Source: Candidatus Zambryskibacteria bacterium CG10_big_fil_rev_8_21_14_0_10_42_12 (GTDB taxonomy: Bacteria > Patescibacteriota > Minisyncoccia > Phycocordibacterales > 1-14-0-10-42-12). Taken from it: a DNA stretch of 64,000 nucleotides. Each line of letters opens with the position of its first letter. Within the stretch, counting starts at the first letter, position 1. The stretch covers positions 61,155 to 125,154 of the forward strand of contig PCXL01000011.1 in the NCBI GenBank assembly GCA_002787695.1, in the 5' to 3' direction. Positions 2,337 to 50,899 of the stretch are shown piece after piece. Both the position numbers and the translations under genes were made by a program. Under the pieces are notes generated by a model. The model searched no databases. It saw nothing but the letters and a program-made list of their open reading frames with translations, and was not told the origin of the DNA.

Positions 2337-2693
2337 CTAGATGATAGTTTCAGGATTTATAATTGCTTTAGATGGCACACCTTTCTTTTTTAATTCTTCC
2401 ATAATGATTGATATGACAGACATTTGCATACTCATGCCCATTTCTTTTGTTTTTATAGCACCTTCTGTTTGTAATATTGAAAAAGTGAAGTCAGTGAGAT
2501 TATCCAAGTAAGATATACGTTCATTCATTACCTCTTTTGCTCCATTTGGATTAAATGTTGCATACCTAATTTTAAGCATCTCATTCATAACATCTTGGAT
2601 AGTTTTCTCAGAAGAACTTAGTTTAAGATAGTTTTTTGCTACCCATCGTGCGGTTGAGCCAGTAGCTCCAAATTTAAGGATGAATTTCAACAT
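2337..2693 (-). CDS. Hypothetical protein
   Basis: A 118-aa ORF with no recognisable motifs. The coding call rests on ORF length and composition only. Confidence 0.35.
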   Translation of the reverse strand: MLKFILKFGATGSTARWVAKNYLKLSSSEKTIQDVMNEMLKIRYATFNPNGAKEVMNERISYLDNLTDFTFSILQTEGAIKTKEMGMSMQMSVISIIMEELKKKGVPSKAIINPETII

Positions 2694-2731: not shown

Positions 2732-2770
2732 ATGCGGAGAGGGAGGGAATTTCTCCCTCGACTTAAAACT
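2732..2770 (-). repeat. Partial duplicate of the tRNA-Ser 3' end (T-stem plus acceptor 3' strand, T-loop altered)
   Basis: Plus-strand ATGCGGAGAGGGAGGGA at 2732-2748 is identical to 2912-2928 at the tRNA-Ser 3' end. The six-base T-loop is then different (AATTTC against TTCGAA), followed by the conserved CCCTCG. On the minus strand this gives GAGGG-AGAAATT-CCCTC-CCTCTCC-GCA preceded by a 14-bp-stem hairpin. Confidence 0.5.
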
Positions 2771-2865
2771 TTTTCGTCAAAAAGTTTTAGTCTGGGCACC
2801 GGCTCGCGTACAGGCACTACTGTGCCTGACTTCGTACGCTCCGCCGTTCGAATCCCACCTCATCC

Positions 2866-2898
2866 GTAAAACAAAAGTCGCCCGATGCTACGCATCGG
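2866..2898 (-). terminator. Rho-independent terminator 3' of tRNA-Ser
   Basis: Minus strand CCGATGCGTAGCATCGG (7-bp stem) followed by GCGACTTTTGTTTTA. Confidence 0.5.
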
Positions 2899-2914
2899 AC
2901 TCCTTTGTTTTATG

Positions 2915-3001
2915 CGGAGAGGGAGGGATTCGAACCCTCGGTACGGTTTCCCGTACACCGCGTTTCGAGTGCGGCACATTCGACCACTCTGTCACCTCTC
3001 C
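2915..3001 (-). tRNA. tRNA-Ser (anticodon CGA), type II with long variable arm
   Basis: Minus strand: GGAGAGGTGACAGAGTGGTCGAATGTGCCGCACTCGAAACGCGGTGTACGGGAAACCGTACCGAGGGTTCGAATCCCTCCCTCTCCG. It has anticodon loop CTCGAAA, variable-arm hairpin GTACGG-GAAA-CCGTAC, and T-arm GAGGG/CCCTC. Confidence 0.8.
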
Positions 3002-3070: not shown

Positions 3071-3142
3071 GGCCCTATCGTCTAACGGTTAGGACATCGG
3101 CTTTTCAAGCCGGTAATCGGGGTTCGATTCCCCGTAGGGTCA
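3071..3142 (+). tRNA. tRNA-Glu (anticodon TTC)
   Basis: GGCCCTATCGTCTAACGGTTAGGACATCGGCTTTTCAAGCCGGTAATCGGGGTTCGATTCCCCGTAGGGTCA. It has anticodon loop TTTTCAA and T-loop TTCGATT. Confidence 0.9.
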
Positions 3143-3200
3143 CATGAAAAATGAAGAGGCTCCCGCAAGGGAGCTTTTTCATGTGACCCTACGGGCAGAA
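3143..3200. terminator. Compound hairpin terminator after tRNA-Glu; its outer stem is an inverted copy of the tRNA 3' end
   Basis: GGGTCACATGAAAAA-TGAAGAG-GCTCCC-GCAA-GGGAGC-TTTTTCATGTGACCC. The inner 6-bp stem plus T-run is flanked by a 15-bp outer inverted repeat. Confidence 0.6.
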
Positions 3201-3330
3201 AGGGGTCGGGGAAACTGGGTGTTTCCCCGTGGAGGAAGGCAGTGAGTCCTCGAACGTTGGAAAACCGTGGGTTTCCAAGGTCTCGTAAGGGTCAATGAAA
3301 AATTATCTGTGACCGAAAGTGTATTCACGT

Positions 3331-3348
3331 TTCCCCGTAGGGTCACAT
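3331..3348 (+). repeat. 18-nt perfect direct repeat of the tRNA-Glu 3' end (TTCCCCGTAGGGTCACAT)
   Basis: Identical to 3128-3145. The two copies bracket a 185-bp hairpin-rich segment at 3146-3330. Confidence 0.8.
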
Positions 3349-3391: not shown

Positions 3392-4222
3392 ATGAAAATA
3401 TATCGCTATGTTATAGATGGGCTTGTGATACTCCTGGCACTCTTTGTTTTTGGTCCACATTTGTATTATCTCTTGCCGTATGACTACGTAGACACAACTC
3501 TTCCGGACGATGTTGCCGATTATAATATTGCGATGTATACGTACCTGGAAAGTTTACCTCAAGATTTCCAGACATTACTCGCAGAGCCAACTGGTCTCAC
3601 TGGTACGCAGCGCTTTCGCACACAGGAAAATCGAAGCTTATTATCGGCAGAAGAAGTGTATGAACAGAGCAAGGACAGTGTGGTGATTATCGAGACGATG
3701 GATATGTATGGAGACCCATATAGTGGCGGCGGTGTTGTGCTGTCATCTGATGGGCTGATTGTCACGAGTTATCATCAATTGCAGGATGCAGAAAAAGTTG
3801 CAGTTTCACTTTATGATGGCAGCATTGTCAAAGTCACCGATGTGGTTGCATACGACGAAGCGCTCGATATTGCATTTATAAAGATCGATAGTGTCGATCT
3901 GCAGCCGATGCCGATAGGAGACAGTGCGCTACTTTCGATCGGTGAGCGAGTCTACTCCATCGGGCATCCTGAAGGATTTCATCACTCGTTTGCAGAGGGT
4001 GTGGTCAGTGGTATCCGTGACTATTCGTCTAGAGGTGAAGGGATACAGATCCAGATGACGAATCCGATTTCAGCAGGGAATAGTGGTGGCGCGTTGCTCA
4101 ATACCTATGGCGAGCTTGTGGGTATTCCATCGTGGTCTCTTGAATACGAAGACAATATCGTCTCTATCCAAAACCTCAATTTCTCCATCCCGATCAGGGA
4201 GGCGCTCGGAATTTTAGAATAA
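3392..4222 (+). CDS. Trypsin-like serine protease (S1C/HtrA-like protease domain, no PDZ), N-terminal membrane anchor
   Basis: Catalytic triad context: TSYHQL (His), DIAFIKI (Asp), GNSGGAL (Ser). 276 aa. Confidence 0.85.
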   Translation: MKIYRYVIDGLVILLALFVFGPHLYYLLPYDYVDTTLPDDVADYNIAMYTYLESLPQDFQTLLAEPTGLTGTQRFRTQENRSLLSAEEVYEQSKDSVVIIETMDMYGDPYSGGGVVLSSDGLIVTSYHQLQDAEKVAVSLYDGSIVKVTDVVAYDEALDIAFIKIDSVDLQPMPIGDSALLSIGERVYSIGHPEGFHHSFAEGVVSGIRDYSSRGEGIQIQMTNPISAGNSGGALLNTYGELVGIPSWSLEYEDNIVSIQNLNFSIPIREALGILE

Positions 4223-4348
4223 GTCCAAACCTTGAAAATACGGCTTTATAAAAGAAAATTTTGTTTTTATATATTATAAAGAGCTTAAATCAGGAGTCGT
4301 CTTTTTTATTGATAAAGTTTATTTTTTGGACTAATATCCATAATACAG

Positions 4349-5671
4349 ATGAATACCAATCAACATCAAAAAAATTATGAGGTGAAACTACCCAGAATAA
4401 TGACGATCGTTTTAAGCATTGCTTCTTATTATAGAAAAACATATTTTAATACTAATGACTTAGCTATATTAGGAAACAAATATAAGCAGGATATAATACG
4501 CACCAGGAAAGATAAGGAGCACTATGCTTTTGCGAATGACACGAATTTCGGCGGAATTAGAGGTAATCTCGCTACTTTGTTGACTTGGAAGGGGGTTATT
4601 AAAAAAGATAATAGATTAGTTAATGCGTATTCTGTTGGCAGAAATGAACAAATAGTTAATGCTGTTGCTAGTGGAAAAATTATGCTTGATCTGACAAACG
4701 ACAAAGCTCATACACAGAATGAGAATCTTTTAAAATTATTGAAGGCTGAGATTTACTTAAGGTCAGTCAGGGAAGGTCAGGCACATATAAAAACATTTAT
4801 AAAGAACAATAACCATATTGGTTTTGGGAGAGATCTTGAGTTTCCAAAAACTTCTGTAGTAAAGACCAGTAAAGGTGTATGTTTTTTGAGGGCAATTGTT
4901 AATAATTTTGTAGATAGTAAAAATGAAGTTCTTAGTTATAGAATAGTCGATTTATGGTCTTCTAAAAAAATTTTAAAAGCTAATATTCATGTCTTATTTG
5001 TTGTTCCTAGAGGTAGTGACTATTGGTGTTCTATCTATGCTTTGTCTTTGGAGGAACTGTGGATCAATAAACCTGCAATTATAAATATAAACTTACTAAA
5101 CAAAAAATGTTTTGATGACATTGGAAAAGAGTATGAATTAAGAAAATTAGATTATGCGATAAATAATTTTACGAAAAGAGATGCAAATATAAATTTGCGT
5201 ATAGGGTATGATCCAAGAGAATTTTTAATTAGATATGTTATTGATGAAACAAAAAATAAGAGAATAAGGGAAAGTGAATTTAGTTTGTTTACCAAGAATT
5301 TCTTGAATTGGAATCCGAGAATAAAAATTAATAATGTGGAGGTGTGTAACATTATTGAATCAAGTTCTGGTGGTGTTGATCTGACACTCCAGTTTGTTAA
5401 TGGATCTGAGGCAAAGGTTGAGCTTGAGCATAATTGGAAAAATTATATTGATCATGGTCATCATACTAGTAACGCATGGTCAAAATGTTGGTTGTATGCT
5501 GATGAGCAGTGGGATTTCGATAATATAAAAAATATTTTTCAAACACATTTTAAAAAGCACGGAGACCGTGTTCCAACAACATTTCTAACTAAAATAGATG
5601 GTAAACAAAAGATATTTAGAGTTGATTGGCATACTCTTGATGTTTCGGAAATCGATATTACAAATTATTGA
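4349..5671 (+). CDS. Putative restriction endonuclease of the adjacent R-M system (no recognisable family; C-terminal D...EAK PD-(D/E)XK-like motif)
   Basis: A 440-aa ORF in a strongly AT-rich block of roughly 30% GC. It is convergent with, and ends 6 bp inside, a two-methyltransferase operon. The C-terminal GGVDLTLQFVNGSEAKVELEH resembles a PD-(D/E)XK core. The call is by genomic context. Confidence 0.4.
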   Translation: MNTNQHQKNYEVKLPRIMTIVLSIASYYRKTYFNTNDLAILGNKYKQDIIRTRKDKEHYAFANDTNFGGIRGNLATLLTWKGVIKKDNRLVNAYSVGRNEQIVNAVASGKIMLDLTNDKAHTQNENLLKLLKAEIYLRSVREGQAHIKTFIKNNNHIGFGRDLEFPKTSVVKTSKGVCFLRAIVNNFVDSKNEVLSYRIVDLWSSKKILKANIHVLFVVPRGSDYWCSIYALSLEELWINKPAIININLLNKKCFDDIGKEYELRKLDYAINNFTKRDANINLRIGYDPREFLIRYVIDETKNKRIRESEFSLFTKNFLNWNPRIKINNVEVCNIIESSSGGVDLTLQFVNGSEAKVELEHNWKNYIDHGHHTSNAWSKCWLYADEQWDFDNIKNIFQTHFKKHGDRVPTTFLTKIDGKQKIFRVDWHTLDVSEIDITNY

Positions 5672-6414
5672 TTTGTGATTTTCTTTATGTTTTTCAATTC
5701 TTTTAGTCTATTGATCATAATTGCGTAGTATTCACTATCTTTTTCTATACTTATACTATTTCTCTCTAGGTCATTTGCAACTTTTGTTATTGTTCCACTA
5801 CCAGCAAAACAGTCTAAAATCAGATCGTTTTTATTGGTGAAAATTTTAATTAGAAATTCAATAACTTTCTCAGGTTTTTGTGTAGGGTGTTTTGTTCTTT
5901 CTTTTCCCATACATATCGGTGTTTCTATAAAATTATGCATCTCTCTTTGGTTGCTAAAGTTGAAAGTGTAGCTGATTTTTTTATTATCGAAACCGTTCGT
6001 TGCCCATACAATTGCCTCATTGGAAGACAAAAAACCATTTTTTCTAATTTGTGGTGCCGGATTTGTTTTATGCCAAATTATTGTTGCATGATGTGAAAAA
6101 CCTAACGATTCGTAGATCCGCTTAATATCACTTATATATTCTAACTTACAGAATAAAACTAAATTACCATTTTCCTTTAAAACTTTTTTAATCTCACTTA
6201 CCCACTTTCTGGTAAAAACCAAGAATTCATCATCTTTAAAATAGTCCCATTCTCCAAAATCAGAAGAAAGAGCTTTTCTACCTTTCAATAATTTCGTATT
6301 TTTATTGGCAGTATTGTAGGGAGGATCCACAATAACGGCATCAACTTTTCTTTTGATTTTACCTAGGGAGTTAAAAACATCTCCAAGGATTAGTGTGTGT
6401 TTGTTCTTTTTCAT
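5665..6414 (-). CDS. Site-specific DNA methyltransferase (beta-class N6A/N4C, DPPY motif before FxGxG)
   Basis: VIVDPPYN (motif IV), HPTQKP, DCFAGSGTT (motif I) at the C-terminus. Its start codon overlaps the stop of the upstream methyltransferase (TAATG), indicating translational coupling. Confidence 0.85.
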   Translation of the reverse strand: MKKNKHTLILGDVFNSLGKIKRKVDAVIVDPPYNTANKNTKLLKGRKALSSDFGEWDYFKDDEFLVFTRKWVSEIKKVLKENGNLVLFCKLEYISDIKRIYESLGFSHHATIIWHKTNPAPQIRKNGFLSSNEAIVWATNGFDNKKISYTFNFSNQREMHNFIETPICMGKERTKHPTQKPEKVIEFLIKIFTNKNDLILDCFAGSGTITKVANDLERNSISIEKDSEYYAIMINRLKELKNIKKITNQ

Positions 6415-7343
6415 TAGGTTTTATTTTTTATTCTATCAATCGACATCTTGTAGAACGCGTTGTCTATTTCGCATCCAGAGTAAAACCTGTTCATTCTTTT
6501 GGCTACCACAGCAGTGGTACCAGATCCGAGAAAAGGGTCGAAAACAATGTCACCGCTGTTTGTTGTTGATTTAATAATTCTTTCTAGTAACCACTCAGGT
6601 TTCTGTGTTGGGTGTATCTTCTTTCCTCCAAAAGTTTTACCTTTTGGCCAAATAGATCTCATTTGCTTGCCATCATTGTCTTTTTTCATTAAATCATAAT
6701 TGAAAATATTCCCCTTTCCTTTTCTGGCCCAAATAAAATTTTCGTGATCTGCTACGAATCTAGTACAAGACAAATTGGGTGTCGCATCTGTTTTATGCCA
6801 CAAGATTTCATTTAATAATTCAAAGCCAGTTTTTTCTAATAAATAACCGGTCGTATAAATACTGTGATAAGTTCCTGCCACCCATATTGCTCCATTTTTT
6901 TTCAAAATACGGAATGCCTCGTCTATCCATTTTTTCGTAAATAGTTCATAATTATCGATTATGTCCCAAAGACCTTTATTAGTATATAGGTCTTTGCCAC
7001 CTGATTTTGTAAATTTAATTTTAAAATTGCTTTTACTGAGATTATAAGGGGGGTCTGCAAAAATGAGGTCTATAGACTCGTCTTCTATTGAGCTCATTAT
7101 CTTTATGCAGTCATCGTTAAAAATCTTATTCTTGAGCCCGTCTTTTGTTATTTTATCTCTCGCCTCTTTTTTAGGTTTTTTAGAGAGGGTAAGTAGATAT
7201 GCTAATGAATCTTTTTCAATTCTTCTGGCACCTCCAATTTTAATAGAAGGAATTATATTTTTAGATATGTATCTTTTTATAGTTATTTCAGACACATTTA
7301 AAAAATCAGAAGCTTCTTTTATTGTGTAAAAATTTGGCTGCAT
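6414..7343 (-). CDS. Site-specific DNA methyltransferase (beta-class) with N-terminal HTH domain
   Basis: N-terminal MQPNFYTIKEASDFLNVSEITIKRYI (HTH). IFADPPYN, HPTQKP, DPFLGSGTT. Confidence 0.85.
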   Translation of the reverse strand: MQPNFYTIKEASDFLNVSEITIKRYISKNIIPSIKIGGARRIEKDSLAYLLTLSKKPKKEARDKITKDGLKNKIFNDDCIKIMSSIEDESIDLIFADPPYNLSKSNFKIKFTKSGGKDLYTNKGLWDIIDNYELFTKKWIDEAFRILKKNGAIWVAGTYHSIYTTGYLLEKTGFELLNEILWHKTDATPNLSCTRFVADHENFIWARKGKGNIFNYDLMKKDNDGKQMRSIWPKGKTFGGKKIHPTQKPEWLLERIIKSTTNSGDIVFDPFLGSGTTAVVAKRMNRFYSGCEIDNAFYKMSIDRIKNKT

Positions 7344-7581
7344 TGTTTTTATCTAAGCTCGTAAAAGTATCAATTGGTATCAATTTTAGCAGTAATGGGT
7401 ATTTTGGTATGGGGATAACGTTTGTAGGTTAAAACCAAGTATAAATTTAGGGGAGGTTTTAGCAGTGGTGTAAAAATATTGGTGGTACATATCTTTGGCA
7501 TGAACAAATTCGCGATAGGAGGTCTTTATATTGTGATCCTACGAAGCATTTAACGGAGAATTGTGATATAACGCTTATATT

Positions 7582-8523
7582 ATGCCAGCAAATAATCTTG
7601 GGAAAATTTCAAAAGTGGAGTTTAGGAAAGCGTGGAATCATGAGGCTTCTGATTTTACAAATTGGCTCGCGGAGGAAGAAAACCTACGCCTCTTGAGTGA
7701 TGAAATCGGTATTGATATTAAACTTATTCAAACAGAAGCAAGTGTGGGGAAATTTAATGTTGATATTCTGGCAGAAGAGGAAAACACAGGAAAGAAGATT
7801 GTCATTGAAAATCAACTCGAAGCGACAAACCATGACCATCTTGGGAAAATTATTACCTATGCGTCTGGCTACGAGGCAAATATTGTCATTTGGGTTGTGA
7901 AGGAAGCGAGAGAGGAACATCGACAAGCGGTCGACTGGCTCAATGAGCATACTGATGAGGATCTTGCATTCTTTTTGATACAAATAGAATTGTGGCAGAT
8001 CGGGATGTCTCCGTTTGCACCTAAGTTTGAAATGATTTCTAAGCCAAATGATTGGGCTAAAACAATAAAGCAATCAGTCGGAAGTAATAAAGTAACCGAA
8101 ACAAAGGCGCAGCAATTGCAATTTTGGGAACAGTTTAAGAATTATGCAAAGGACCATAATACAAATTTGAGATTGCAGAAAGCTTATCCACATCACTGGA
8201 TGAACGTCAGTATTGGGAGTAGCCATGCACATATGGCACTTTCTATGAGTTCATTTGATGAGGTGATGCGAACAGAGCTGTATATACCAGATAATAAAGA
8301 AATATATAATTTTTTGTATAAGCAAAGAGATAAGATTGAAAAAGAATTTGGCATGAAGCTCGAGTGGATGGAATTACCAGAAAGAAAAGCGAGTCGTATA
8401 AAAGTAGAAACTTCAGGCCTTATAGATAATACGGACGAATGGGAAACATATTTTGCATGGCTTCAAAAAACCGCCGAAGATTTTCAACGAGTTTTTTCAA
8501 AAATTTTAAAAAAGTATAAATAA
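7582..8523 (+). CDS. PD-(D/E)XK nuclease-fold protein (DUF4268-like)
   Basis: N-terminal FNVDILAEEEN...KKIVIENQLEATNHDHLGKIITYA is typical of NucS/RecB-like nuclease cores. 313 aa, adjacent to the R-M operon. Confidence 0.5.
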   Translation: MPANNLGKISKVEFRKAWNHEASDFTNWLAEEENLRLLSDEIGIDIKLIQTEASVGKFNVDILAEEENTGKKIVIENQLEATNHDHLGKIITYASGYEANIVIWVVKEAREEHRQAVDWLNEHTDEDLAFFLIQIELWQIGMSPFAPKFEMISKPNDWAKTIKQSVGSNKVTETKAQQLQFWEQFKNYAKDHNTNLRLQKAYPHHWMNVSIGSSHAHMALSMSSFDEVMRTELYIPDNKEIYNFLYKQRDKIEKEFGMKLEWMELPERKASRIKVETSGLIDNTDEWETYFAWLQKTAEDFQRVFSKILKKYK

Positions 8524-8527
8524 TCCC

Positions 8528-8671
8528 ATGAACTCATCTAAAACTCTCTATATCATGTGTGGTGTGGGATTTGCGGGGAAATCTACCCTTGCGAAAAAGA
8601 TCGCGGAATATACCGGGGCGACTTTGGTCAGTCAGGATGCTATGTATTTTGAAAAAGAAGAGGTAAGTTGA
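8528..8671 (+). pseudogene. Truncated P-loop kinase/AAA-type ATPase gene fragment (49 codons, Walker A only)
   Basis: MNSSKTLYIMCGVGFAGKSTLAKKIAEYTGATLVSQDAMYFEKEEVS*. It has a Walker A motif GxxGxGKST and terminates after 49 aa, immediately upstream of a GC-rich ORF. Confidence 0.55.
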
Positions 8672-8714
8672 CACATTACGTGTTAAGTAGTATTAAGTAG
8701 ATGGAGGGCAGAGG

Positions 8715-9362
8715 ATGCCGAATCATACGAAGTGGACTGATGACAGGTTGGCTGTGGTTCGAGAACTTGCGAGTGAGCAAGGTCTTACTGCACGTGCAAT
8801 ATTTGCCCTGCAAAGACCAGAGCTTACTGGATTCACCGAGCGTGCGATCCAAAATACGATGGCTCGGTTTGGGTACACGGATCCAAGGCGGAGCGCGCAA
8901 CGAAAGCGTGCGCGTCGCCTAACGAAGGACGAGAAGGAACGACTGATCGAATATCTCGAAGGTGACGGCGCAAAGAAATCGAACAAGCTCGTGGCAAAGA
9001 AGCTCAAAGTGCCGCTTGCTAGTGTCGAGTACTGGCGTAAGCAACTAGGTCAACGGGTCGATCGTAACAAGATTTTCAAATCTGCTGTGTATCGGCGGAG
9101 CGCGTCACGTCGGGCAACTCTGTATGGCCAAGAGATCAGAGAGGCGCGTCGAGCGCAATTTCGGGCGAGGCGCACACGTCTTATCCAACAACTGAGGAAG
9201 CAACCGGACAAGGTTTGTAGGACCTGTAAGGAGCCTTGGTTTGAAGATGAATTCTTCTTTTATCGCGCTTCGACGCGAAGCAAAGACAACAAGCGCTTAT
9301 TGTTTGCGACGTGCAAGGCGTGCGTCAGTGAACAGAGGGCGCGACAACGACGTCATGTCTGA
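8715..9362 (+). CDS. Hypothetical Arg-rich DNA-binding protein (predicted HTH segments plus C-terminal CxxC...CxxC zinc ribbon)
   Basis: 215 aa, about 52% GC against a roughly 42% background. Contains CRTCKEPW...CKACV. It follows the truncated kinase fragment and may be a mobile-element remnant. Confidence 0.45.
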   Translation: MPNHTKWTDDRLAVVRELASEQGLTARAIFALQRPELTGFTERAIQNTMARFGYTDPRRSAQRKRARRLTKDEKERLIEYLEGDGAKKSNKLVAKKLKVPLASVEYWRKQLGQRVDRNKIFKSAVYRRSASRRATLYGQEIREARRAQFRARRTRLIQQLRKQPDKVCRTCKEPWFEDEFFFYRASTRSKDNKRLLFATCKACVSEQRARQRRHV

Positions 9363-10078
9363 AAATGGGGGTCACCTGAAACACGGGTGACCCTTGTTCT
9401 TTTTTGTCTGAGCATTCTATATAATGTACACGCATAGGTAGACTCGCCGGTTTTCAGGCTCTCAGTTTTTGAAAGAAGATCATCTTCTGAACATGACGCA
9501 TTCTTACATGCAGTTTTTGTATTGCAAAAACCCAGAACGGAGCGTTTGGGGAAACAACCCTTAAAAAGGATTGACAAACGCTCCGTTCTGGGTTTTTAAC
9601 GTGCTTTCACCTTCATGAATGCCTTGCGGGCATTTTAATGATTTACAAGCTAAAGTCAAATATATGGCTCTGTTGGGTTTGACACTCAAAAAAATGTATC
9701 TCTTGTCCACAAAATGTGGATAAAGTTCGTTGACTCTTCATGGTCACGTCGTACCATTAGAAGTACGAGAACTGATGGGAAACCAGTACTCGGTCGCCGA
9801 CTATGCAATACAACTGGTTTCCAAAATTTTTCATAGCAGTATAAAACCGACAAACCCGGGGAAGAGGTATGTCGGTTTTTCGTAAAATTTGAAACCAGTT
9901 AGTCGAGAACCTCGACAATCCAAATGACAGAGCACAGAACGTGTTTGTGTTTTGATATTTGGATTGCCATTACGTATATCCCTTACACGGAGTATGCGTA
10001 TCGCAATTCAAAGTTAATGGTCGATATCATTCTCGTACGAGAAATTTATTACAAGAATTAATTAATCAAAGTAAAGAT

Positions 10079-10714
10079 ATGAAGAAAGTAACAGCAATTA
10101 TTGCTACAGTAGCATTTCTCGCAAGTGTGAACGTAGCAAACGCATGGTACTGGGGCGGATGGAATGATGATGACAATACGGTAAACATCAATACTACAAA
10201 TTCTGCAACAGTTTCAAATACAGTAACTACAAAGGCAAACACTGGCTCAAACACAACAGTTGGCGGTAGTGCTGGTAACACAGTATCTGGGTATGGCAAC
10301 AACGGTGGTAATGATGCTACTGGAGGAGATGCAGATGTTGATACTGGTGATGCAACAGCAGTTAGTGATGTTCTCAACAATGTGAACGGAACTGACATTA
10401 ACGTTGTTGGTCCAGACTGTGGTTGTGAAGGTGACAACGAAGTAAACGTAAACGTTAGAAATAGCGCAACGGTTACAAACGATGTTTACACCAAAGCAAA
10501 CACGGGCTACAACACAACAGTTGGCGGCAGTGCAGGTAATGATGTAGACGGCGCTACTCGCCCATGGTGGAGAAGACATCATGTGGTAAATGGTGGCAAC
10601 AACGGTGGTAATGATGCTACTGGAGGAGATGCAGATGTTGATACTGGAGAAGCAGTAAGTGGTACGGTGGTATCTAATTACGTAAACCAGACAATAGTTC
10701 GCGTACGACGATAA
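10079..10714 (+). CDS. Secreted repeat protein (signal peptide; internal repeats TKANTGxNTTVGGSAGN and NGGNDATGGDADVDTG)
   Basis: Start chosen at MKKVTAIIATVAFLASVNVANA (signal peptide). Two near-identical internal repeat blocks. Confidence 0.6.
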   Translation: MKKVTAIIATVAFLASVNVANAWYWGGWNDDDNTVNINTTNSATVSNTVTTKANTGSNTTVGGSAGNTVSGYGNNGGNDATGGDADVDTGDATAVSDVLNNVNGTDINVVGPDCGCEGDNEVNVNVRNSATVTNDVYTKANTGYNTTVGGSAGNDVDGATRPWWRRHHVVNGGNNGGNDATGGDADVDTGEAVSGTVVSNYVNQTIVRVRR

Positions 10715-10736
10715 TCGTACAAGGTGAGGAAGGTTC

Positions 10737-10782
10737 CCTTCCTCCCGCAAAATCCCATATTTTCGGGATTTTGCGGGAGGAA
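10737..10782. terminator. Intercistronic 16-bp perfect inverted repeat (CCTCCCGCAAAATCCC / GGGATTTTGCGGGAGG)
   Basis: Lies between the stop at 10714 and the start at 10794. Confidence 0.5.
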
Positions 10783-10793
10783 CACCGAAAATT

Positions 10794-11285
10794 ATGAAAA
10801 GAAACATCGTGTACATACTCTATATGGGAATATTATGGGCACTCGCACTCCCTGCGCAGGCTTATACAGAGGTGACAAATACGGTGACAACAGAGGCAAA
10901 TACAGGAGGCGGAGGTGGTACGGCGACGGTCAACACAAAGATCTACACAGAGGTAAATGGGGAGGTGATAACTGATATCGATGAGACAAAGACAAGCACA
11001 GACGGTTCTCCTGTAGTGATAGAAAAGGAAATCACATATTCAGATAATTGGAGAGATATACCAACGGACATAGACATGGTTTCAGAAACTCGTACGGAGA
11101 CATCTGTACAGGTTAAAGAGGATTCAGTAATGATGAATGAAGATGATGTCGATGCTATGGAAGAAGTAATGGAGGAGATGACGGAGGAGCGTCTAGAAGA
11201 TGTTGAGGCAAGATCAGAGGCACAGGTAACCGTGTTTGCACGCATTAAAGTATTTTTCAAAACATATGTATTTTGGTGGCTATAA
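10794..11285 (+). CDS. Secreted acidic protein sharing the T(E/K)ANTG motif with neighbours
   Basis: Signal peptide MKRNIVYILYMGILWALALPAQA, then YTEVTNTVTTEANTGGGGG and an acidic C-terminal half. Confidence 0.5.
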   Translation: MKRNIVYILYMGILWALALPAQAYTEVTNTVTTEANTGGGGGTATVNTKIYTEVNGEVITDIDETKTSTDGSPVVIEKEITYSDNWRDIPTDIDMVSETRTETSVQVKEDSVMMNEDDVDAMEEVMEEMTEERLEDVEARSEAQVTVFARIKVFFKTYVFWWL

Positions 11286-13938
11286 AAAAGACCCAATATG
11301 TGAACAAGTGCTAGCGATATGGATCGCGCTTGTGCTTGTATGTGTTCCTGGTGCACCACTGTATGCTGAAGAAGGTGGAGATGCGGAGATAAACACTGGA
11401 GACGCGACTGTTTCGGTTGAAGCAACAAATAGTGCGAACAACAATGTTGTAGACACTGAACCAGAACCAGATCCAGCAGAGGAAGAAGAACAACCTGAAT
11501 CTGTAGAGGAACAAAGTGCTGGCGAGTCAGATGGATCAACAGAAGAAGGTGGGGACGACGAAGGTGCCACATCATCGCCGAGTTTATTGAGTCAGGAACA
11601 GCATGAATTGGCAACGAGTACGGCAACATCGACAGACCCAGTTGCTCAAACGGAGGTCGCTTCAACAACGGGCACGACTACTACACACACAACTATAGAT
11701 ATTGATAATGAAGCACATCTGGAATCAGGTGCCGATTTACTTGCACAGACAGGCGAGAATACTGCGACAAGCACAGGAACGACCACGATAGAAACGGGTG
11801 ATGCATATGCAAACGTAAATATTTTGAATATTGCGAATACAAATATTATTGATTCCTACGGTTTCATGTTGCTCCTTAATAGTTTTATGGGAGATATTGG
11901 AACGATAGATTTTAGAGATTTTATAGCACCATTACTTTTTAATAATAATCAGCAGTCATCTTGTGGTACCGGAGTTTGTGGAGGAGATGATACGCTCGAT
12001 ATTTCTGGAACCAGTACAACAACCATAAACAATGCCGTTATCGTGCGTTCGCAGACTGGTGGCAACTCTGCTTCTGGTGGTGATGCGTCAATACAAACAG
12101 GAGATGCATATGCGGGTGCTAATGTGGTCAATATCGCGAATACTAATATTGTTGATTCGAACTATATGTTGCTTGCCCTCAACAATTTTGGAGATTGGTC
12201 GGGGGATTTGGTGTTGCCTGGAAAAGATTTCTTTATCAATATGCTCTATGGCATGGGTACGACTGGCGCAGGAACAGTGACGGTGAATACAGAAAACAAT
12301 GCGAACATTGAAAACGGAGTTTCTACAGTTGCCGATACAGGAGGTAACACTGCAACAAGTACAGAGAGTGGAGCCAATATTGAAACAGGAAATGCTACAG
12401 CTCAAACAAACGTAACGAATGTAGTAAACCAAAATTTCTTTAATCAGGATTCACTATTTATTATCTTTAAAGTGCATGGCACATGGTCGGGAAATGTATT
12501 TGGACTACCGCCAGGGCTTTCATGGCGCGAGACACCGCATGGTATTGAAGTATTTGGAAGTGGACAGACGCAGACAGGTTCATCTGGTACTGGCTTGAAT
12601 AATCTCTCGATAAACCAACAGAACAATGCCGACATTAAAAACAACGTAGAACTGTATGCTCTTACGGGAGAAAATGAAGCAGGGGGAGGTAATACATCTA
12701 TTCAAACAGGTAATGCGTACGCCGGTGCCAATGTGGTTAATATGGCAAACACTAATATCATTGGCCGCAACTGGATACTTGCCATCGTAAACATCTTTGG
12801 TGACTGGAATGGAAACTTGGCCTTTGGACGACCTGACCTCTGGATAGGTGGCAAAATAGAGCCCGTAAACCCAATGAGTCCTATTGGACCCGGTTCTGAA
12901 CTTCGATATAAAGTTGTTGTGGTAAATAGAGGAGATTCTGATGCGACAGATGTTGTGCTTAAACATCGTTTTGATGTGCCATTTGTCTCATTTGTAGACA
13001 CAAGTAATCCTCAGAAGGTGAATGAGAGAGATACACTATGGAATATTGGCACGATCGCTGTTGGCGAACATGTTGAAATAACATTGCCTGCAGTGGTAAA
13101 AAGTGCACGTGAAATTGTAAGTGGTACAACTCGTATTGAGAGCATGTTTGAGGTTACGTCGTTTGAAACGGATGCTGACAGTGGTGACAACAAAGAGCAT
13201 CTTTCTGTTGTTATAGATAACTATGATGCAAACCTATCTCCAGTAAATCTAAATCCAAACATAGAAGAACCGGTCGTGCCGGTATTACCAGACTTTAGTG
13301 TAGTGAAGACGAGCAGTACTCATACAACAGTGGCAAGCAGTACAGTGGAATATACCGTGACGCTTAAAAATAATGGTGGGTTTGCGCCTGATGCGGTAGT
13401 GATCGATGCACTCAAAGATGAGAACGGAAATATTGTTTTTGAGCAGGTATGGCAACTCGGTCCCGTCTATGAGAATGAGGAAATTACCATTACATACGGA
13501 ACTATCTTTAGTGGTGATATGGAACCGGGATTATACACAAACACTGCAGAAGTCATTGCAAAAGTATCTACCGATAGCGAAGATGTTATCCGATCTTCCG
13601 CCGATGCGATCGTCGCACTGGAAGCAGGTGTAGTGGTAGAACCGCCAGTGATTCCTGCACCAGTGGTACAGCCTGTCAGACGACAGATTGTGGCGATGAA
13701 TGATACATACGGTATAACCCTGATCCCTCCGATGTGTAGCCTCTACAGTTGCTTAATAGATACGGATGATGAGGCTTCTACTCAATTTGGGTTCGGTAAC
13801 ATGTTTCTCGCATCAGCCTTTGGTAGCGGATTCCCGCCAAGTGACGATAGATCACTCAAACTCTTTATTTTGGCAGCAGTCATGTATGCGGTTGGCAGAC
13901 CAAGAGAGAATCGTCATGGCATGTCACTGTTCTTCTAA
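11266..13938 (+). CDS. Large cell-surface protein: signal peptide, Thr/Asn-rich beta-helix-like repeats (TGxNxAxxGxAxIQTGxAYAGANVVNxANTNI), two DUF11/CARDB-like domains, C-terminal hydrophobic anchor
   Basis: The repeat recurs at least four times. The DUF11-like segments are YKVVVVNRGDSDATDVVLKHRFDVP and YTVTLKNNGGFAPDAVVIDAL. The start is inferred at MYFGGY, overlapping the previous gene. Confidence 0.6.
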   Translation: MYFGGYKKDPICEQVLAIWIALVLVCVPGAPLYAEEGGDAEINTGDATVSVEATNSANNNVVDTEPEPDPAEEEEQPESVEEQSAGESDGSTEEGGDDEGATSSPSLLSQEQHELATSTATSTDPVAQTEVASTTGTTTTHTTIDIDNEAHLESGADLLAQTGENTATSTGTTTIETGDAYANVNILNIANTNIIDSYGFMLLLNSFMGDIGTIDFRDFIAPLLFNNNQQSSCGTGVCGGDDTLDISGTSTTTINNAVIVRSQTGGNSASGGDASIQTGDAYAGANVVNIANTNIVDSNYMLLALNNFGDWSGDLVLPGKDFFINMLYGMGTTGAGTVTVNTENNANIENGVSTVADTGGNTATSTESGANIETGNATAQTNVTNVVNQNFFNQDSLFIIFKVHGTWSGNVFGLPPGLSWRETPHGIEVFGSGQTQTGSSGTGLNNLSINQQNNADIKNNVELYALTGENEAGGGNTSIQTGNAYAGANVVNMANTNIIGRNWILAIVNIFGDWNGNLAFGRPDLWIGGKIEPVNPMSPIGPGSELRYKVVVVNRGDSDATDVVLKHRFDVPFVSFVDTSNPQKVNERDTLWNIGTIAVGEHVEITLPAVVKSAREIVSGTTRIESMFEVTSFETDADSGDNKEHLSVVIDNYDANLSPVNLNPNIEEPVVPVLPDFSVVKTSSTHTTVASSTVEYTVTLKNNGGFAPDAVVIDALKDENGNIVFEQVWQLGPVYENEEITITYGTIFSGDMEPGLYTNTAEVIAKVSTDSEDVIRSSADAIVALEAGVVVEPPVIPAPVVQPVRRQIVAMNDTYGITLIPPMCSLYSCLIDTDDEASTQFGFGNMFLASAFGSGFPPSDDRSLKLFILAAVMYAVGRPRENRHGMSLFF

Positions 13939-14195
13939 ACTTCTACAATAAGAGCAAGCGCCCCGTGATGGGGCGCCTTGGTTAGGAATACGGCCTGTCC
14001 GTTACTGTCCAGAACGGCGATGACATGTTTCAGTTTTTCCTCGAGCTGCTTCAGCTCATCAGGATTTGCAAGTTCGATTTCTTTTTTCAAACTTTCCTCC
14101 AGGGGTATTGATTCTGCCTGTAATAATACGCTATTTTCCTGTTTTTTTAAAAGGACACCTTACAAAGGTTGAACCTTTGTAAGGTTGGGATATGG

Positions 14196-30138: not shown

Positions 30139-30519
30139 ATGAAATTTCTAAACATAGCAGTTACAACCCTTATCACCGCGTCTCCTCTTTTATTGTATGC
30201 TCAAGAACAAGACGCAATGAGAGGAGAGATAACCGATGAGCGCTGTGAAGGATTTAGCTGTGATTATGGTGATTTAATAAATCTCATACAGGATATTTTA
30301 TTGTTTATGTTGAAGCTTTCAATACCGATCGCAGCTATCGCCCTTGCGGTTGCTGGGTTCAAGATTTTGACAGCACGAGATTCAGTCACAGAACGTAGTG
30401 AAGCTAAAACCATGATGCTTAAAATAGTAGGTGGCGTTATGATTATGTTGGCAGCAGGACTGATTGTGAATACGATTGTTGGTGCGTTATTGCAAGGCGA
30501 CTTTAATTTTTTGGATTAA
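30139..30519 (+). CDS. Small 2-TM pilin-like protein (TrbC/VirB2-like), paralog 1 of 6
   Basis: Signal peptide MKFLNIAVTTLITASPLLLYAQ, then two TM helices with a charged loop. Confidence 0.5.
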   Translation: MKFLNIAVTTLITASPLLLYAQEQDAMRGEITDERCEGFSCDYGDLINLIQDILLFMLKLSIPIAAIALAVAGFKILTARDSVTERSEAKTMMLKIVGGVMIMLAAGLIVNTIVGALLQGDFNFLD

Positions 30520-30523
30520 CATT

Positions 30524-30973
30524 ATGAAATATATCTTCATTACCGTGATACAGGCTGTTTTCATAGGAATGTTTATGATATCCAGTGTAAGTTTTGCGGA
30601 AACAGGTATTGAACCGGGCACCCCTAGTGGAGGTGGTACAGGTATTGAACCGGGCACCCCAGGTGGCAGTCCTGCGTCCCATCAAATCAACTTTCAAAAC
30701 CCGCTCTCGCTTGGAGAAAATGCAACCATCTCAACATTTATTGAGTCAATCCTTAGAAATATTGTTGTTCCGATAGGAGCAGTCGTATCTGTGTTCTTTA
30801 TTATCTATGCAGGCTTCCTGTTTGTGACAGCGCGCGGAAGCGAAGACAAAGTGACAAAAGCAAAAACTGCACTCCTCAATGCGGTTATTGGTACAGTTAT
30901 TATTTTAGGATCATGGGTGATTGCCCAGGCAATTTCAGGCACTGTCTCACAACTAGGAGGCCCAACGTTATAA
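30524..30973 (+). CDS. Small 2-TM pilin-like protein, paralog 2 (Gly/Pro-rich GIEPGTP repeat insert)
   Basis: Signal peptide, duplicated TGIEPGTPxGG, then TM-loop-TM. Confidence 0.5.
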   Translation: MKYIFITVIQAVFIGMFMISSVSFAETGIEPGTPSGGGTGIEPGTPGGSPASHQINFQNPLSLGENATISTFIESILRNIVVPIGAVVSVFFIIYAGFLFVTARGSEDKVTKAKTALLNAVIGTVIILGSWVIAQAISGTVSQLGGPTL

Positions 30974-30980
30974 ACGTATT

Positions 30981-31319
30981 ATGAAAAAAATCGTCTTACT
31001 TTCTACACTTTTTGCACCTCACCTGCTATTTGCCCAACTAATTACATCAGACTTTAAAAGTTTTGTTACGAGCCTGGTGAATGCGTTTTTACCGACACTG
31101 TTGGGTATCATTGCTCTTATTTTGTTTTTGTATTTCGTCTGGCGTGTAGCACAGTTTATTTTGCATGCAGACAGTAAAGAAACACGTTCATCTGCGAGTC
31201 GAGTGTTTCTCTGGGGTATTCTCGCTCTGTTTGTTGCAGCATCACTTGTTGCCATAATTTCATTTTTACTGGGAGAGTTTGGTTTTGGCGTACCGGTTAT
31301 TCCTAAATTGCCACAATAA
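30981..31319 (+). CDS. Small 2-TM pilin-like protein, paralog 3
   Basis: Signal peptide MKKIVLLSTLFAPHLLFAQ and a VFLWGILALFVAASL core. Confidence 0.5.
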   Translation: MKKIVLLSTLFAPHLLFAQLITSDFKSFVTSLVNAFLPTLLGIIALILFLYFVWRVAQFILHADSKETRSSASRVFLWGILALFVAASLVAIISFLLGEFGFGVPVIPKLPQ

Positions 31320-31378
31320 CAGTGGGTTGTTGATAAATAGTAGTCATTTGAGCATTAAACATATTACAATTAAAAATT

Positions 31379-31753
31379 ATGAAAAAAAGTATATATATAA
31401 GTTTGCTAGCATTATCACCACTCATTGTATTGGCACAACCATCTAGTGGTTATTTAACACAATCACAAGGTTTATTGGATGGAGTTTTAAATACGATTAC
31501 ATTACTTATTGGTATTGCAATTGTGCTCGCGTTTCTATTTTTTGTGTGGGGTATTGCAGAATTTATCCGTAAGGCAGATGATGCTGGCAATAGAGCAGAA
31601 GGTCGCCAGAGAATGATCTGGGGTATTGTTGCGCTCGCTGTTCTTGCAACTGTCTGGGGTATTGTGAGATGGCTACAGATTGAACTTGGTCTTTCTGCAA
31701 ACGAAGCTGCGCCGGGAATATTCCAATTCTTCCAGCTTTGGAGTGGTAACTAA
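31379..31753 (+). CDS. Small 2-TM pilin-like protein, paralog 4
   Basis: Signal peptide, then AGNRAEGRQRMIWGIVALAVLATVWGIV. Confidence 0.55.
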   Translation: MKKSIYISLLALSPLIVLAQPSSGYLTQSQGLLDGVLNTITLLIGIAIVLAFLFFVWGIAEFIRKADDAGNRAEGRQRMIWGIVALAVLATVWGIVRWLQIELGLSANEAAPGIFQFFQLWSGN

Positions 31754-31838
31754 TCCACATTGTATCCTTGCCACTTCCGTAGTAGCATTGTCTCATAGGT
31801 GCTAAACGCCCTTAATTATAAAGTTTTATTTACTCAAA

Positions 31839-32189
31839 ATGAAAAAAGCAGTTATTACTTCTTTGATGCTTGGCGCAATGCCGTTTATTGCAAGTGCCCA
31901 GCTTGAAAACATTGAAGACATTGTTGTATCAATTGGTGATATTATCGACCTTTTGGTACCTATTGTGTTTGCACTCGCTATCCTCTATTTCTTCTGGGGA
32001 CTTGCACAATTTATCTTGGCTTCAGGAGACGAAACCGCACGTGCAGAAGGCCGCCAGAAGATGATCTGGGGTATTGTAGCAATTGCAGTAATGGCATCTA
32101 TCTGGGGACTTGTGTTCTTCTTGCAAGATGCTGTTGGTGTAAGTCGAGTAGACGCACCGTCTATCGATGTTATTCCGACTGTCAACTAA
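31839..32189 (+). CDS. Small 2-TM pilin-like protein, paralog 5
   Basis: Signal peptide, then ARAEGRQKMIWGIVAIAVMASIWGLV, almost the same motif as paralog 4. Confidence 0.55.
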   Translation: MKKAVITSLMLGAMPFIASAQLENIEDIVVSIGDIIDLLVPIVFALAILYFFWGLAQFILASGDETARAEGRQKMIWGIVAIAVMASIWGLVFFLQDAVGVSRVDAPSIDVIPTVN

Positions 32190-37339: not shown

Positions 37340-37421
37340 GCCCGGGTGGCGGAACTGGTATACGCGCACGACTTAAAATCGTGTTCCGAAAGGGGTGCGG
37401 GTTCGATTCCCGCCCCGGGCA
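37340..37421 (+). tRNA. tRNA-Leu (anticodon TAA), type II
   Basis: GCCCGGGTGGCGGAACTGGTATACGCGCACGACTTAAAATCGTGTTCCGAAAGGGGTGCGGGTTCGATTCCCGCCCCGGGCA. Confidence 0.85.
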
Positions 37422-37610
37422 CAAGAATAAAAGAACTGGGCACGAATGTGTCTCGTGATTTTTATTCTCGCCTCGGGCGGGAATCGAAAGCCGGAGCGCG
37501 CGAAGCCGACCGTAGGTCGTGTGCGAGGCGGGGTCGCGACCTCCGTCGTGAAGATTTACCCAGCACTTATAACATAAGTGCTGGGTTTATCGAAACAGGA
37601 GAGTTGTGAC

Positions 37611-37628
37611 CGATTCCCGCCCCGGGCA
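37611..37628 (+). repeat. 18-nt direct repeat of the tRNA-Leu(TAA) 3' end (CGATTCCCGCCCCGGGCA)
   Basis: Identical to 37404-37421. The 190-bp segment between them contains hairpins and a partial inverted copy of the T-arm (GCGGGAATCGAA). Confidence 0.8.
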
Positions 37629-37677
37629 TCATATAAAAAGGAAATGCCCTCGCGGATGCGAGGGGCTTTATGGGGGA

Positions 37678-38076: not shown

Positions 38077-38784
38077 GTGCTAATGTTTTTTATATTAATA
38101 TATGGTATACGCTATATGCCTTACAATATTAAATACTACAAAACATATCAGTGGAGTAAAAAGTTGGCATATATAATTGGACTTATTGCAACAGATGGAA
38201 GTCTGTCTGTTGACGAGCGTCATATTGATTTTACATCTAAAGATTTAGAGCTTATCAAAATTTTTAAAGATTGTCTGAAACTTTCAAATAAAATAGGTAT
38301 TAAGAAGAGCGGCACAAACAGAGTTTGTTTTTGTATACAATTTGGTAACAAGAATTTTTACAACTTTCTAAATTCTATAGGGATTTATAAGGCTAAATCC
38401 AAAACTATAAAAAGGATTGATATACCTAATAAATATTTTCCACATTTTTTACGTGGCTGTTTGGATGGCGATGGTAATATTGATTTATACAAACATGCAC
38501 AAAGTCAATATATGCAAATTAGATTTAGATTTGCATCTGCGAGTAAACCATTTCTAGAATGGATATTACAGGTATTAAAAATAAAATATAGTATTGAAGG
38601 AGGTTGGATTTATAGTCAAAAAAATAAATCAACCCATGTTTTAGTCTTTGGTAAGACAGACACTTTGAAAATTGGAAAAATCATGTATCATGACCATGCG
38701 AACTTATGCTTACAAAGGAAGTTTGCAAAATATAAACAATGGGCAAGTGGCGGAATTGGTATACGCGCTAGTCTTAGGAACTAG
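38077..38784 (+). CDS. LAGLIDADG homing endonuclease (double-motif), AT-rich; 3' end overlaps tRNA-Leu(TAG) by about 44 nt
   Basis: Two LAGLIDADG motifs, LAYIIGLIATDGSLS and FLRGCLDGDGNID. About 28% GC. It lies between tRNA-Lys and tRNA-Leu(TAG). Confidence 0.8.
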   Translation: MLMFFILIYGIRYMPYNIKYYKTYQWSKKLAYIIGLIATDGSLSVDERHIDFTSKDLELIKIFKDCLKLSNKIGIKKSGTNRVCFCIQFGNKNFYNFLNSIGIYKAKSKTIKRIDIPNKYFPHFLRGCLDGDGNIDLYKHAQSQYMQIRFRFASASKPFLEWILQVLKIKYSIEGGWIYSQKNKSTHVLVFGKTDTLKIGKIMYHDHANLCLQRKFAKYKQWASGGIGIRASLRN

Positions 38785-38822
38785 TGCCGCAAGGCTTGGG
38801 AGTTCGAGTCTCCCCTTGCCCA
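38741..38822 (+). tRNA. tRNA-Leu (anticodon TAG), type II
   Basis: GGGCAAGTGGCGGAATTGGTATACGCGCTAGTCTTAGGAACTAGTGCCGCAAGGCTTGGGAGTTCGAGTCTCCCCTTGCCCA. Confidence 0.85.
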
Positions 38823-50867: not shown

Positions 50868-50899
50868 CACACGATCTGCTTCAGGCTTTGAAAACACGG

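Follow-up and report, generated by a model that had tools for sequence, protein, structure and literature searches.

The segment that follows the tRNA-Ser(CGA) gene in the window (the whole 64,000-nucleotide stretch of a Candidatus Zambryskibacteria contig analysed here) is one copy of a Patescibacteria-wide family of gene-less folded units that lie 3' of tRNA genes and are apparently undescribed. The units measure about 100-180 nt and are ordered in a common way: an optional terminator hairpin, an arm complementary to the repeat that copies the tRNA 3' end, and, last, two hairpin domains that are conserved. When the tRNA-sense strand folds, pairing between arm and distal repeat closes a three-way junction. 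We put at roughly one half the probability that these units are non-autonomous miniature integrative elements that target the 3' ends of tRNA genes, possibly acting as a folded single strand.

The tRNA-Ser(CGA) unit and its siblings in the window

The 17-nt sequence ATGCGGAGAGGGAGGGA (plus strand) occurs in identical form at 2732-2748 and 2912-2928. The latter occurrence belongs to the 3' end of a tRNA-Ser(CGA) gene called by both ARAGORN and Rfam and the former is a copy lying about 180 nt downstream of the tRNA, just as the initial annotation had described. For a 17-mer with up to 3 mismatches, 0.07 occurrences would be expected by chance in the window, versus the 2 exact copies observed. 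Taken with its flanks, the repeat covers 32 nt at 81% similarity, and 5 of the 6 mismatches fall inside the 7-nt T-loop, which reads TTCGAAT in the tRNA and AGAAATT in the copy. The copy ends 2 nt beyond the discriminator and, like the gene, lacks CCA. The features of the locus are listed below along the minus strand.

3044-3016, minus: promoter-like site
2914/2915-3001, minus: tRNA-Ser(CGA), the unit's upstream anchor (ARAGORN and Rfam RF00005, 54 bits; no encoded CCA)
2912-2928, minus: DR1, TCCCTCCCTCTCCGCAT, an exact repeat made of the tRNA's last 15 nt and 2 nt of trailer
2867-2913, minus: trailer containing a hairpin like that of an intrinsic terminator (A tract, then a stem of GTCCGATGC/GCATCGGGC, then a U tract), from a terminator scan and folding
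2849-2866, minus: the arm, CGGATGAGGTGGGATTCG, an inexact reverse complement of the tRNA tail (T-loop C56 to the discriminator); it pairs with DR2 to form H1
2800-2846, minus: domain P2, CGGC-GGA-GCGTAC-GAAGTC-[AGGCAC AGTA GTGCCT]-GTACGC-GAG-CCG, with the motif TCGAAnGnCGGAGCGnnCGAAG and a tandem G.A internal loop
2755-2796, minus: domain H3 in its type-B form, CCCAGAC-[A/U-rich hairpin]-GTCGAGGG, from the RNAalifold consensus and pair counts of 7 type-B units
2732-2754, minus: DR2 region, AGAAAT followed by TCCCTCCCTCTCCGCAT; it supplies the 3' strand of H1 and bounds the unit on the right

The segment had originally been taken to start at the minus-strand string GGATGAGG...; a 47-nt trailer, which holds the terminator hairpin (2880-2900) and a U tract, comes before it. 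The string GGATGAGGTGGGATTCGAACGG is found at 2865-2844 on the minus strand. The hairpin reported ahead of the copy is present as an A/U-rich, 11-nt perfect inverted repeat at 2764-2789 that reaches about 14 bp when folded. The 186-nt Ser segment as a whole folds with -87.3 kcal/mol (z = -8.9 versus shuffles). An inverted repeat, I1, underlies the arm, and the H1 pairs are recovered in the type-B consensus. Read as its reverse complement, the Ser arm has 5 mismatches to its own tRNA and 2 to the tRNA-Ser(cga) tail of L080, another CPR genome. The window ORF list places no ORF inside the unit, and no promoter is predicted inside it.

The idea that the segment is a tRNA-like or pseudo-tRNA module did not hold up. 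At this locus the only tRNA called is the true one at 2915-3001, and no tRNA, tmRNA or tRNA-like covariance model finds a match in 2732-2913, even at E<=10; ARAGORN calls no tmRNA in the window and there is no Rfam tmRNA match. A retained T-stem under a rewritten T-loop is a correct description of the Ser copy but is peculiar to it and does not extend to the family; the window's sibling units lack the T-stem's 5' strand entirely. Over 7 type-B relatives the T-arm-like hairpin is paired in 71% of cells, which is no different from shuffled or slid controls. In the three-way junction, the copied T-stem strand pairs with the upstream inverted arm.

Four of the ten tRNAs of the window (Ser-CGA, Glu-TTC, Leu-TAA and Leu-TAG) have an exact 17-24-nt copy of their own 3' end 150-210 nt downstream. 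This recurrence, together with the hundreds of nt of homologous structure in other genomes, had escaped the first reading of the sequence. The siblings of the Ser unit are as follows.

3144-3348, plus: unit after tRNA-Glu(TTC), type D, with DR1 at 3128-3145 and DR2 at 3331-3348, 18 nt exact
3175-3195, plus: perfect 21-nt inverted copy within the Glu unit
37423-37630, plus: unit after tRNA-Leu(TAA), type A, with DR1 at 37404-37421 and DR2 at 37611-37628
38824-38974, plus: unit after tRNA-Leu(TAG), type C, with DR1 at 38802-38825 and DR2 at 38951-38974, 24 nt exact

The Ser and Leu-TAA spacers are homologous, both running through a terminator hairpin, the arm, TCGAAnGnCGGAGCGnnCGAAG, a hairpin, GCGAGnCGG, a second hairpin domain and the tail copy. 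The motif TCGAAnGnCGGAGCGnnCGAAG occurs twice in the window as against 0.05 times expected. The Leu-TAA unit, which has the same P2 motif as the Ser unit and an H3 that reads GGGGTCGCG...GTGACCGA, scores 63.6 bits against the family covariance model R1 described below (33 bits with filters off); relative to this unit and to other relatives, the Ser P2 carries compensatory changes. Two more types of internal module are shared with other genomes. The Leu-TAG unit contains the first, a hairpin with a UGUAA loop (GGGTACTG-GAACC-TGTAA-GGTTC) whose stem covaries and which is seen at 10 other CPR loci. The second, the Glu unit's CAGTGAGTC module, gives that unit an interior (CAGTGAGTCCTCGAACG...) unlike that of the others and is also present in L009. 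The window further contains a degenerate tRNA-Val copy after tRNA-Val and a diverged 3' half after tRNA-Leu(CAA).

Distribution and covariation of the family

An exact search with the Ser-unit motif over one genome per species (185,579 species genomes) returned 105 matches at 100 loci. Fifty of the 105 sit within 400 nt 3' of a tRNA on the same strand, and the host genomes of all 50 are labelled CPR/Patescibacteria or unclassified bacterial MAGs; at least 13 tRNA isotypes are represented among these tRNA-linked units. The other matches are unrelated, mostly high-GC and partly clear protein-coding sequence, and look like chance. The covariance model R1, built from 19 minimal units, identified 75 units in 456 kb of fetched loci, of which 62 lie no more than 700 nt 3' of a tRNA; copies without any tRNA also occur. 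Among bystander tRNAs, meaning those that were not the reason for fetching a locus, a tail copy is found downstream in 8 of 39 versus upstream in 1 of 39. Most, though not all, family members have a trailer hairpin between tRNA and arm.

The repeat is typically 19-22 nt long across the family (range 11-27 nt), starting at T-loop C56 and ending 1-3 nt past the discriminator; in type A units its start is preceded by GTGAC. CCA is present in the repeat only where the gene encodes CCA, and the repeat extends into the trailer, which indicates that it copies the DNA of the gene and not the mature tRNA. Reverse transcription from mature tRNA is disfavoured by the same absence of CCA unless gene-encoded. 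Target-site duplication by a staggered cut is disfavoured as well, since in L014/L067 and in L092 unit and distal repeat move together.

In type A units (19 sequences) the three-way junction is paired in 91.8% of cells and shows double changes in 16 of 30 pairs, a result equalled by none of 500 shuffles; slid controls are 26-40% paired. H1 consists of the arm and the first 7-10 nt of the tail copy, more in long-armed units, while P2 is a hairpin with two tandem G.A positions and H3 reads GGUCGCG...CGUGACC with an inner CGAG/CGAG motif and an AGCA-type loop. The P2 motif served as search pattern, and its invariance is partly by construction. One G.U pair is invariant in 19 of 19 type A sequences and two further pairs are often G.U, which assigns the fold to the tRNA-sense strand. 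The arm position that faces T-loop nucleotide 59 covaries through all four pair types, and the arm also follows the unusual TTCAAAT loop of L018. Read off the alignments, the tandem G.A positions are flanked by covarying Watson-Crick pairs and accompanied by a 1-nt bulge, versus the 3-nt bulge of a kink-turn; the conserved junction reads by eye as GTGAC/CGA, versus GTTRRRY for the attC box.

Type B, to which the Ser unit belongs, has P2 as in type A and another H3, CCyAGAC-hairpin-GUCGrGG. Its junction is 93.4% paired in seven units and 26 of 44 pairs are compensatory, the structure having been derived and counted on one and the same alignment; pair 79-116 of H3, for example, is CG in 4 units, UA in 2 and UG in 1. 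The search for covariation in relatives that the initial annotation had proposed gave a positive answer. Its more general view, that the sequence is not random and that its structure is under selection, is upheld because the secondary structure of the family shows abundant compensatory changes.

Rfam 15 (4227 families) holds no relevant match to the Ser unit at E<=10 and none for six canonical-unit loci at E<=0.01, and a full-text literature search found no description of such units. Viral contigs (searched with two patterns) and phage and plasmid collections yielded chance coding-region matches or nothing. Judged by sequence, the core motifs of hammerhead and other small ribozymes, of group II domain 5 and of SRP-like elements do not fit, and Rfam reports no match to them. 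TIGR arrays do occur in CPR, but they are built of 36-nt units and are unrelated.

Turnover of units and variable DNA at the distal repeat

Comparison of related genomes shows that units are gained, lost, swapped and duplicated. The order tRNA-Val, tRNA-Ser(cga), tRNA-Glu(ttc) is common to the window and locus L018, and the Ser/Glu pair is found in L081 too; TrxB-FtsZ downstream were compared between the window and L018, where FtsZ is 68% identical. At the tRNA-Ser(cga) site the window has a type-B unit, L018 a short type-A unit whose arm, GGATTTG, fits the TTCAAAT loop of that tRNA, and L081 no unit. The L018 unit precedes a conserved core gene, with no island; in L081 tRNA-Ser runs directly into the promoter of the conserved downstream gene, and only the unit is missing. 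At the tRNA-Glu site the type-D unit of the window corresponds to a type-A unit in L018 and to two near-identical type-A units in L081. The L081 pair brackets 2.9 kb encoding an Ldh_2 protein and a UvrD-like helicase, and the corresponding place in L018 is occupied by Fic and kinase genes. In a WWE3 genome, a stretch of 158 nt is 99.4% identical between loci L014 and L067, and its limits coincide exactly with the ends of the repeats. The L014 copy has no tRNA, just a 25-nt tRNA-tail-like sequence, and a serine-recombinase ORF lies just downstream of the L067 copy. Perfect tandem units are found in L084 and L080.

The distal repeat is also shown to behave as an attachment point for small islands. 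In the window, a low-GC restriction-modification region comes after the tRNA-Glu unit and variable small genes come after the tRNA-Ser unit; no third repeat that would close an island is present there. Tandem duplication, with an island later inserted into the middle repeat, would also account for the near-identical copy pairs, which for this reason do not prove self-transposition. L002, where tRNA-Glu is directly followed by tRNA-Val, was considered as a clean empty site and set aside, its downstream DNA being unrelated to the window.

The gene beside the Ser unit encodes a 118-aa protein identical to one annotated from a Candidatus Zambryskibacteria MAG. Homologues sit in unrelated neighbourhoods, downstream of a tRNA-Ser gene in 6 of the 9 contexts examined. 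In 5 of these 6 (the window, L153, L156/157, L163 and L162) the gene is directly behind a tRNA-Ser tail copy, and in L159 it is 1.1 kb downstream of tRNA-Ser(gga). A type A or B unit lies between tRNA and gene in 4 of the 5 tail-copy contexts; the fifth has none. The junction CCGCAT/(C)TAACAGnTAGCA in front of the gene is common to the window and L156/157 while their unit types differ, which argues for separate insertions of the units between the body of the tRNA and a tail-flank junction that is older. The protein has no Pfam match; its predicted structure is all-helical and confident (pLDDT 92), and the model matches no fold in the PDB. Clustering of all ORFs around 47 loci revealed no recurrent family that could be a linked protein. 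The window ORFs scanned include no integrase, recombinase or transposase, and searches for a recombinase, transposase or reverse transcriptase linked to the units found none.

Mechanism, competing readings and likeness to known systems

As a miniature integrative element, a unit would enter by recombination of its own tail copy with the 3' end of a tRNA gene, in a reaction presumably catalysed by an enzyme encoded elsewhere. The strand-specific fold may present the tail copy as a duplex within a folded single strand, in the manner of the CTX-phage attP hairpin or of integron attC, and arm and tail would co-vary because the fold presents the tail in this form. One can imagine a circular single-stranded form in which one tail and one arm make up a rod, capped by the terminator hairpin on one side and by P2/H3 on the opposite side. 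Such a circle would account for an arm that is palindromic to both repeats, to the upstream one across the terminator hairpin and to the downstream one across P2/H3. For the Ser unit, the circle junction should read ...GTCGAGGGAGAAAT-TCCCTCCCTCTCCGCAT joined to ATAAAACAAAGG..., and an empty site should have tRNA-Ser directly joined to TAACAGATAGC. When metagenomes were searched for an empty site with TTCGAATCCCTCCCTCTCCGCATTAAC, all that came back were tRNA-Ser genes with the tail in common but otherwise unrelated. For the Ser locus itself neither an exact empty site nor an excised form was found.

One expects tandem G.A positions and an invariant G.U in a functional RNA more than in a DNA site. 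This speaks against an element, as do the lack of a linked enzyme and the absence of anything similar from phage, plasmid and viral collections, and the arm features that units of one isotype share across distant lineages, as the Glu units do, fit long vertical co-evolution or a host function as well. The main rival is a structured RNA that serves the host and is tied to its tRNA by read-through from the tRNA promoter, a reading that we rate as somewhat unlikely. The helix of arm and tail would mimic an acceptor/T-arm minihelix, which would make the RNA a possible substrate for RNase P, RNase Z or CCA addition, or a protein might bind its G.A motifs; such an RNA could serve in processing or insulation or function as a small RNA, comparable to dicistronic tRNA-snoRNA genes and mascRNA. 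The location of the fold on the tRNA-sense strand, the isotype-specific arms and an arm-tail helix collinear with acceptor and T-stem all agree with this, as does the placement of the unit, always 3' of a tRNA and in the same orientation. No promoter is predicted within the unit, and any transcript should therefore come from the tRNA. However, a strong intrinsic terminator usually stands between the tRNA and the fold, and the resemblance to tRNA is limited: the T-loop is lost, no tRNA-like model matches, and the arm of minimal units pairs with just 7-10 nt of tail. A host function would also have to be reconciled with the fact that most tRNAs and the orthologous sites in relatives are without units, that subtypes replace one another at one tRNA and that copies exist without a tRNA.

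Integrase-made att duplications in tRNA genes are typically of the size of the unit repeats and lie at the same position. This raises the possibility that the units are scars or conserved end-pieces of larger tRNA-integrating islands or prophages, that is, attL/attR remnants left after deletion of the cargo. The variable genes after the distal repeat in the window (Glu, Ser) and likewise in L018 and L081, the serine-recombinase ORF adjoining the L067 copy and the repeated occurrence of 118-aa gene homologues behind a tRNA-Ser tail copy point in that direction. We nevertheless consider it unlikely: a strand-specific fold maintained across phyla by dozens of compensatory changes is not what a scar would keep, and unit subtype and adjoining cargo assort independently. 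In addition, the L018 Ser unit stands before a core gene with no island, L081 lacks the unit only, and in the window no third repeat closes an island. Another proposal, a decaying partial tRNA duplicate (pseudo-tRNA) or a chance repeat, is extremely improbable. The window does have such duplicates, as seen with tRNA-Val and tRNA-Leu(CAA), and the initial annotation had reasoned that decay would be favoured if covariance models gave no hit and the stem were not conserved in relatives. The models indeed give no match, but relatives have a conserved, covarying fold. The chance expectation is only 0.07, the interior of the unit is dissimilar to a tRNA body and homologous interiors lie behind unrelated tRNAs in many genomes; the strong covariation and the other family-level data contradict decay.

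If the units are mobile, as the integrative-element reading holds, they would be among the smallest site-specific elements known and would show tRNA tails being multiplied into extra insertion points for islands. A bolder version, which we regard as distinctly unlikely, is that they form a new minimal element class, about 130-180 nt long and with no gene, whose active form is a rod-like single-stranded circle (DNA or RNA) with the arm-paired tRNA tail as attachment site or guide. Were this so, the choice of target would reside in base pairing, in the manner of bridge RNAs and IS200/IS605 guides, and not in a protein. The streamlined Patescibacteria genomes would also be seeded by the units with decoy sites of attachment, by which the integration of islands is steered. 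If instead they are RNAs, they would constitute a widespread new class of tRNA-linked RNA in organisms whose RNA biology has hardly been explored. Of the tRNA genes sampled in Patescibacteria, a fifth to two-fifths carry a conserved folded unit, even though the genomes are very small. On either reading the units explain assembly breaks and "partial tRNA" annotations near CPR tRNA genes, and they provide a defined covariance model and defined junctions for work in cultured Saccharibacteria.

Several known systems share parts of this design. The tRNA-like domain of tmRNA, viral TLS, mascRNA, bacterial YrlA and tRNA-snoRNA genes have in common with the units an acceptor-like helix built from a tRNA 3' strand or a position directly 3' of a tRNA. 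The units differ from them in having no mimic of the T-loop or D-loop, no covariance match and a terminator before the fold, and in mimicking their own neighbouring tRNA. IS200/IS605-derived PATEs and REP elements are likewise small, gene-less, hairpin-rich and strand-specific, and their target or end is read by base pairing with an internal guide; these guides are 4-5 nt long, however, with no 20-bp repeat and no specificity for tRNA genes, and no Y1 transposase was seen with the units. CIMEs and MITE-like elements resemble the units in that they lack a mobility gene of their own, are bounded by repeats, reach many copies per genome and vary between strains. CIMEs are kb-sized ICE remnants, though, and MITEs have fixed terminal inverted repeats and short target duplications. 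In the units the "inverted repeat" is the local tRNA tail and changes with each tRNA; assignment to MITEs was rejected, as the family has no common terminal inverted repeats or fixed target duplication, its arm and tail varying by tRNA and its repeat from 11 to 27 nt.

An architectural parallel exists with the attP(+) hairpin of CTX phage, a Xer-dependent IMEX, and with integron attC. In both, as in the units, a target-like sequence and an inverted copy some 90-130 nt apart form an imperfect strand-specific stem with bulges and non-canonical pairs, no recombinase is encoded in the unit, and ORF-less arrays occur. The imperfect stem of the units is H1, which covaries, and its strand is fixed by the G.U pairs. 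The resemblance is one of architecture only: CTX attP and attC target dif or attI with known recombinases and boxes, whereas the units lie at tRNA genes. In this last respect they are akin to islands and prophages inserted at tRNA sites by P4-type tyrosine integrases, which also have a 17-24-bp repeat of the tRNA 3' end starting in the T-loop, leave the tRNA intact and border on variable DNA. As in such integrative elements, both boundaries of the unit carry a direct repeat of the tRNA 3' end (17 nt exact in the Ser unit). There is no integrase gene, nor any other gene, in the ~100-180 nt between the repeats; what lies there is a conserved strand-specific three-way junction, with homologous interiors at different tRNAs. 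What would be new is DNA that integrates at tRNA sites but is gene-less, 100-180 nt long and defined by a conserved fold, with a modest chance that it represents something categorically new.

Degenerate and diverged tRNA copies

Degenerate or diverged copies follow two of the tRNA genes in the window:

1141-1197 (within 1108-1210), minus strand: degenerate tRNA-Val(GAC)-like sequence, downstream of tRNA-Val(GAC) (1211-1285)
50831-50877, minus strand: diverged copy of the 3' half of tRNA-Leu(CAA), 20 nt past that gene (50898-50981)

The tRNA-Val(GAC)-like sequence, which received no call from ARAGORN or Rfam, has a broken T-arm and a still recognisable D-arm and anticodon arm; exact copies of GGCGTTGGCAGGCGGG at 1195-1210 and 1108-1123 bracket it. 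The tRNA-Leu(CAA) half-copy spans the anticodon stem through the acceptor end (35/49 identical), and the changes in its T-stem are compensated. It looks like a displaced or imported half from integration in the anticodon loop.

Genes and variable DNA near the tRNA genes

The following features were noted:

2337-2693, minus strand: gene for a 118-aa protein (homologues P0002-P0042)
about 3392-14000: variable region that follows the tRNA-Glu unit, the folded segment ending in a copy of the tRNA tail
30476-32189, plus strand: four small genes in a row with type IV secretion pilin domains (TrbC/VirB2-like, PF18895)
38077-38784, plus strand: LAGLIDADG-type homing-endonuclease ORF (Pfam PF14528)
46625-47431, plus strand: LAGLIDADG-type homing-endonuclease ORF (Pfam PF14528)

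The 118-aa gene and its homologues are repeatedly found directly behind a copy of a tRNA-Ser 3' end (cga, gct or tga) in neighbourhoods that are otherwise unrelated; at locus L159, a homologue lies 1.1 kb downstream of tRNA-Ser(gga). The protein belongs to no Pfam family. Its AlphaFold model is all-helical and confident (pLDDT 92), and no fold match to it was found in the PDB.

At tRNA-Glu, a metagenome contig (L002 1-220, JGI 3300004209) matches the window at 99.9% identity as far as the final 6 nt of the gene (3138-3143), past which it runs into tRNA-Val and unrelated DNA. The homology break falls within the repeated tRNA-Glu tail, which differs by one A/G base. Beyond the unit, the variable region codes for two N6/N4 DNA methyltransferases, DUF4268, a DUF11 protein and a 440-aa protein without a Pfam match, and its GC content drops to 0.32-0.34 at 4000-8000. 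Because the syntenic interval in the relative L018 measures only about 2.7 kb, the region looks like an island hot spot.

Each homing-endonuclease ORF terminates within a tRNA gene or right where one begins (Leu-TAG at 38741, Tyr at 47417), and the first ORF starts 16 nt past tRNA-Lys.

Units copying tRNA ends in other genomes

At two loci elsewhere (L163 about 1040-1172, L156 about 1935-2218), tRNA-Ser(gct) has mirror-image units at its 5' side; the window holds no 5'-side tRNA copies. Each comprises a copy of the first 17-18 nt of the tRNA, then a core with a CGGAGCGAGG-like sequence. In L163 the tRNA 5' end then follows the core in reverse-complement form. The L156 locus repeats its 5'-end copy, together with a follower of about 125 nt, twice in tandem.

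In two metagenome contigs (L109 5783-5960, L110 6663-6900), tRNA-Ser is followed by a tandem pair of units, one of about 70 nt and one of about 130 nt, each with GGGATGAGAAG inside and TCCCTCCCTCTCCGC at its end. Their tRNA-Ser genes are unrelated and come from other organisms; these tandem arrangements suggest that similar tail-copying may occur beyond the Patescibacteria unit family.
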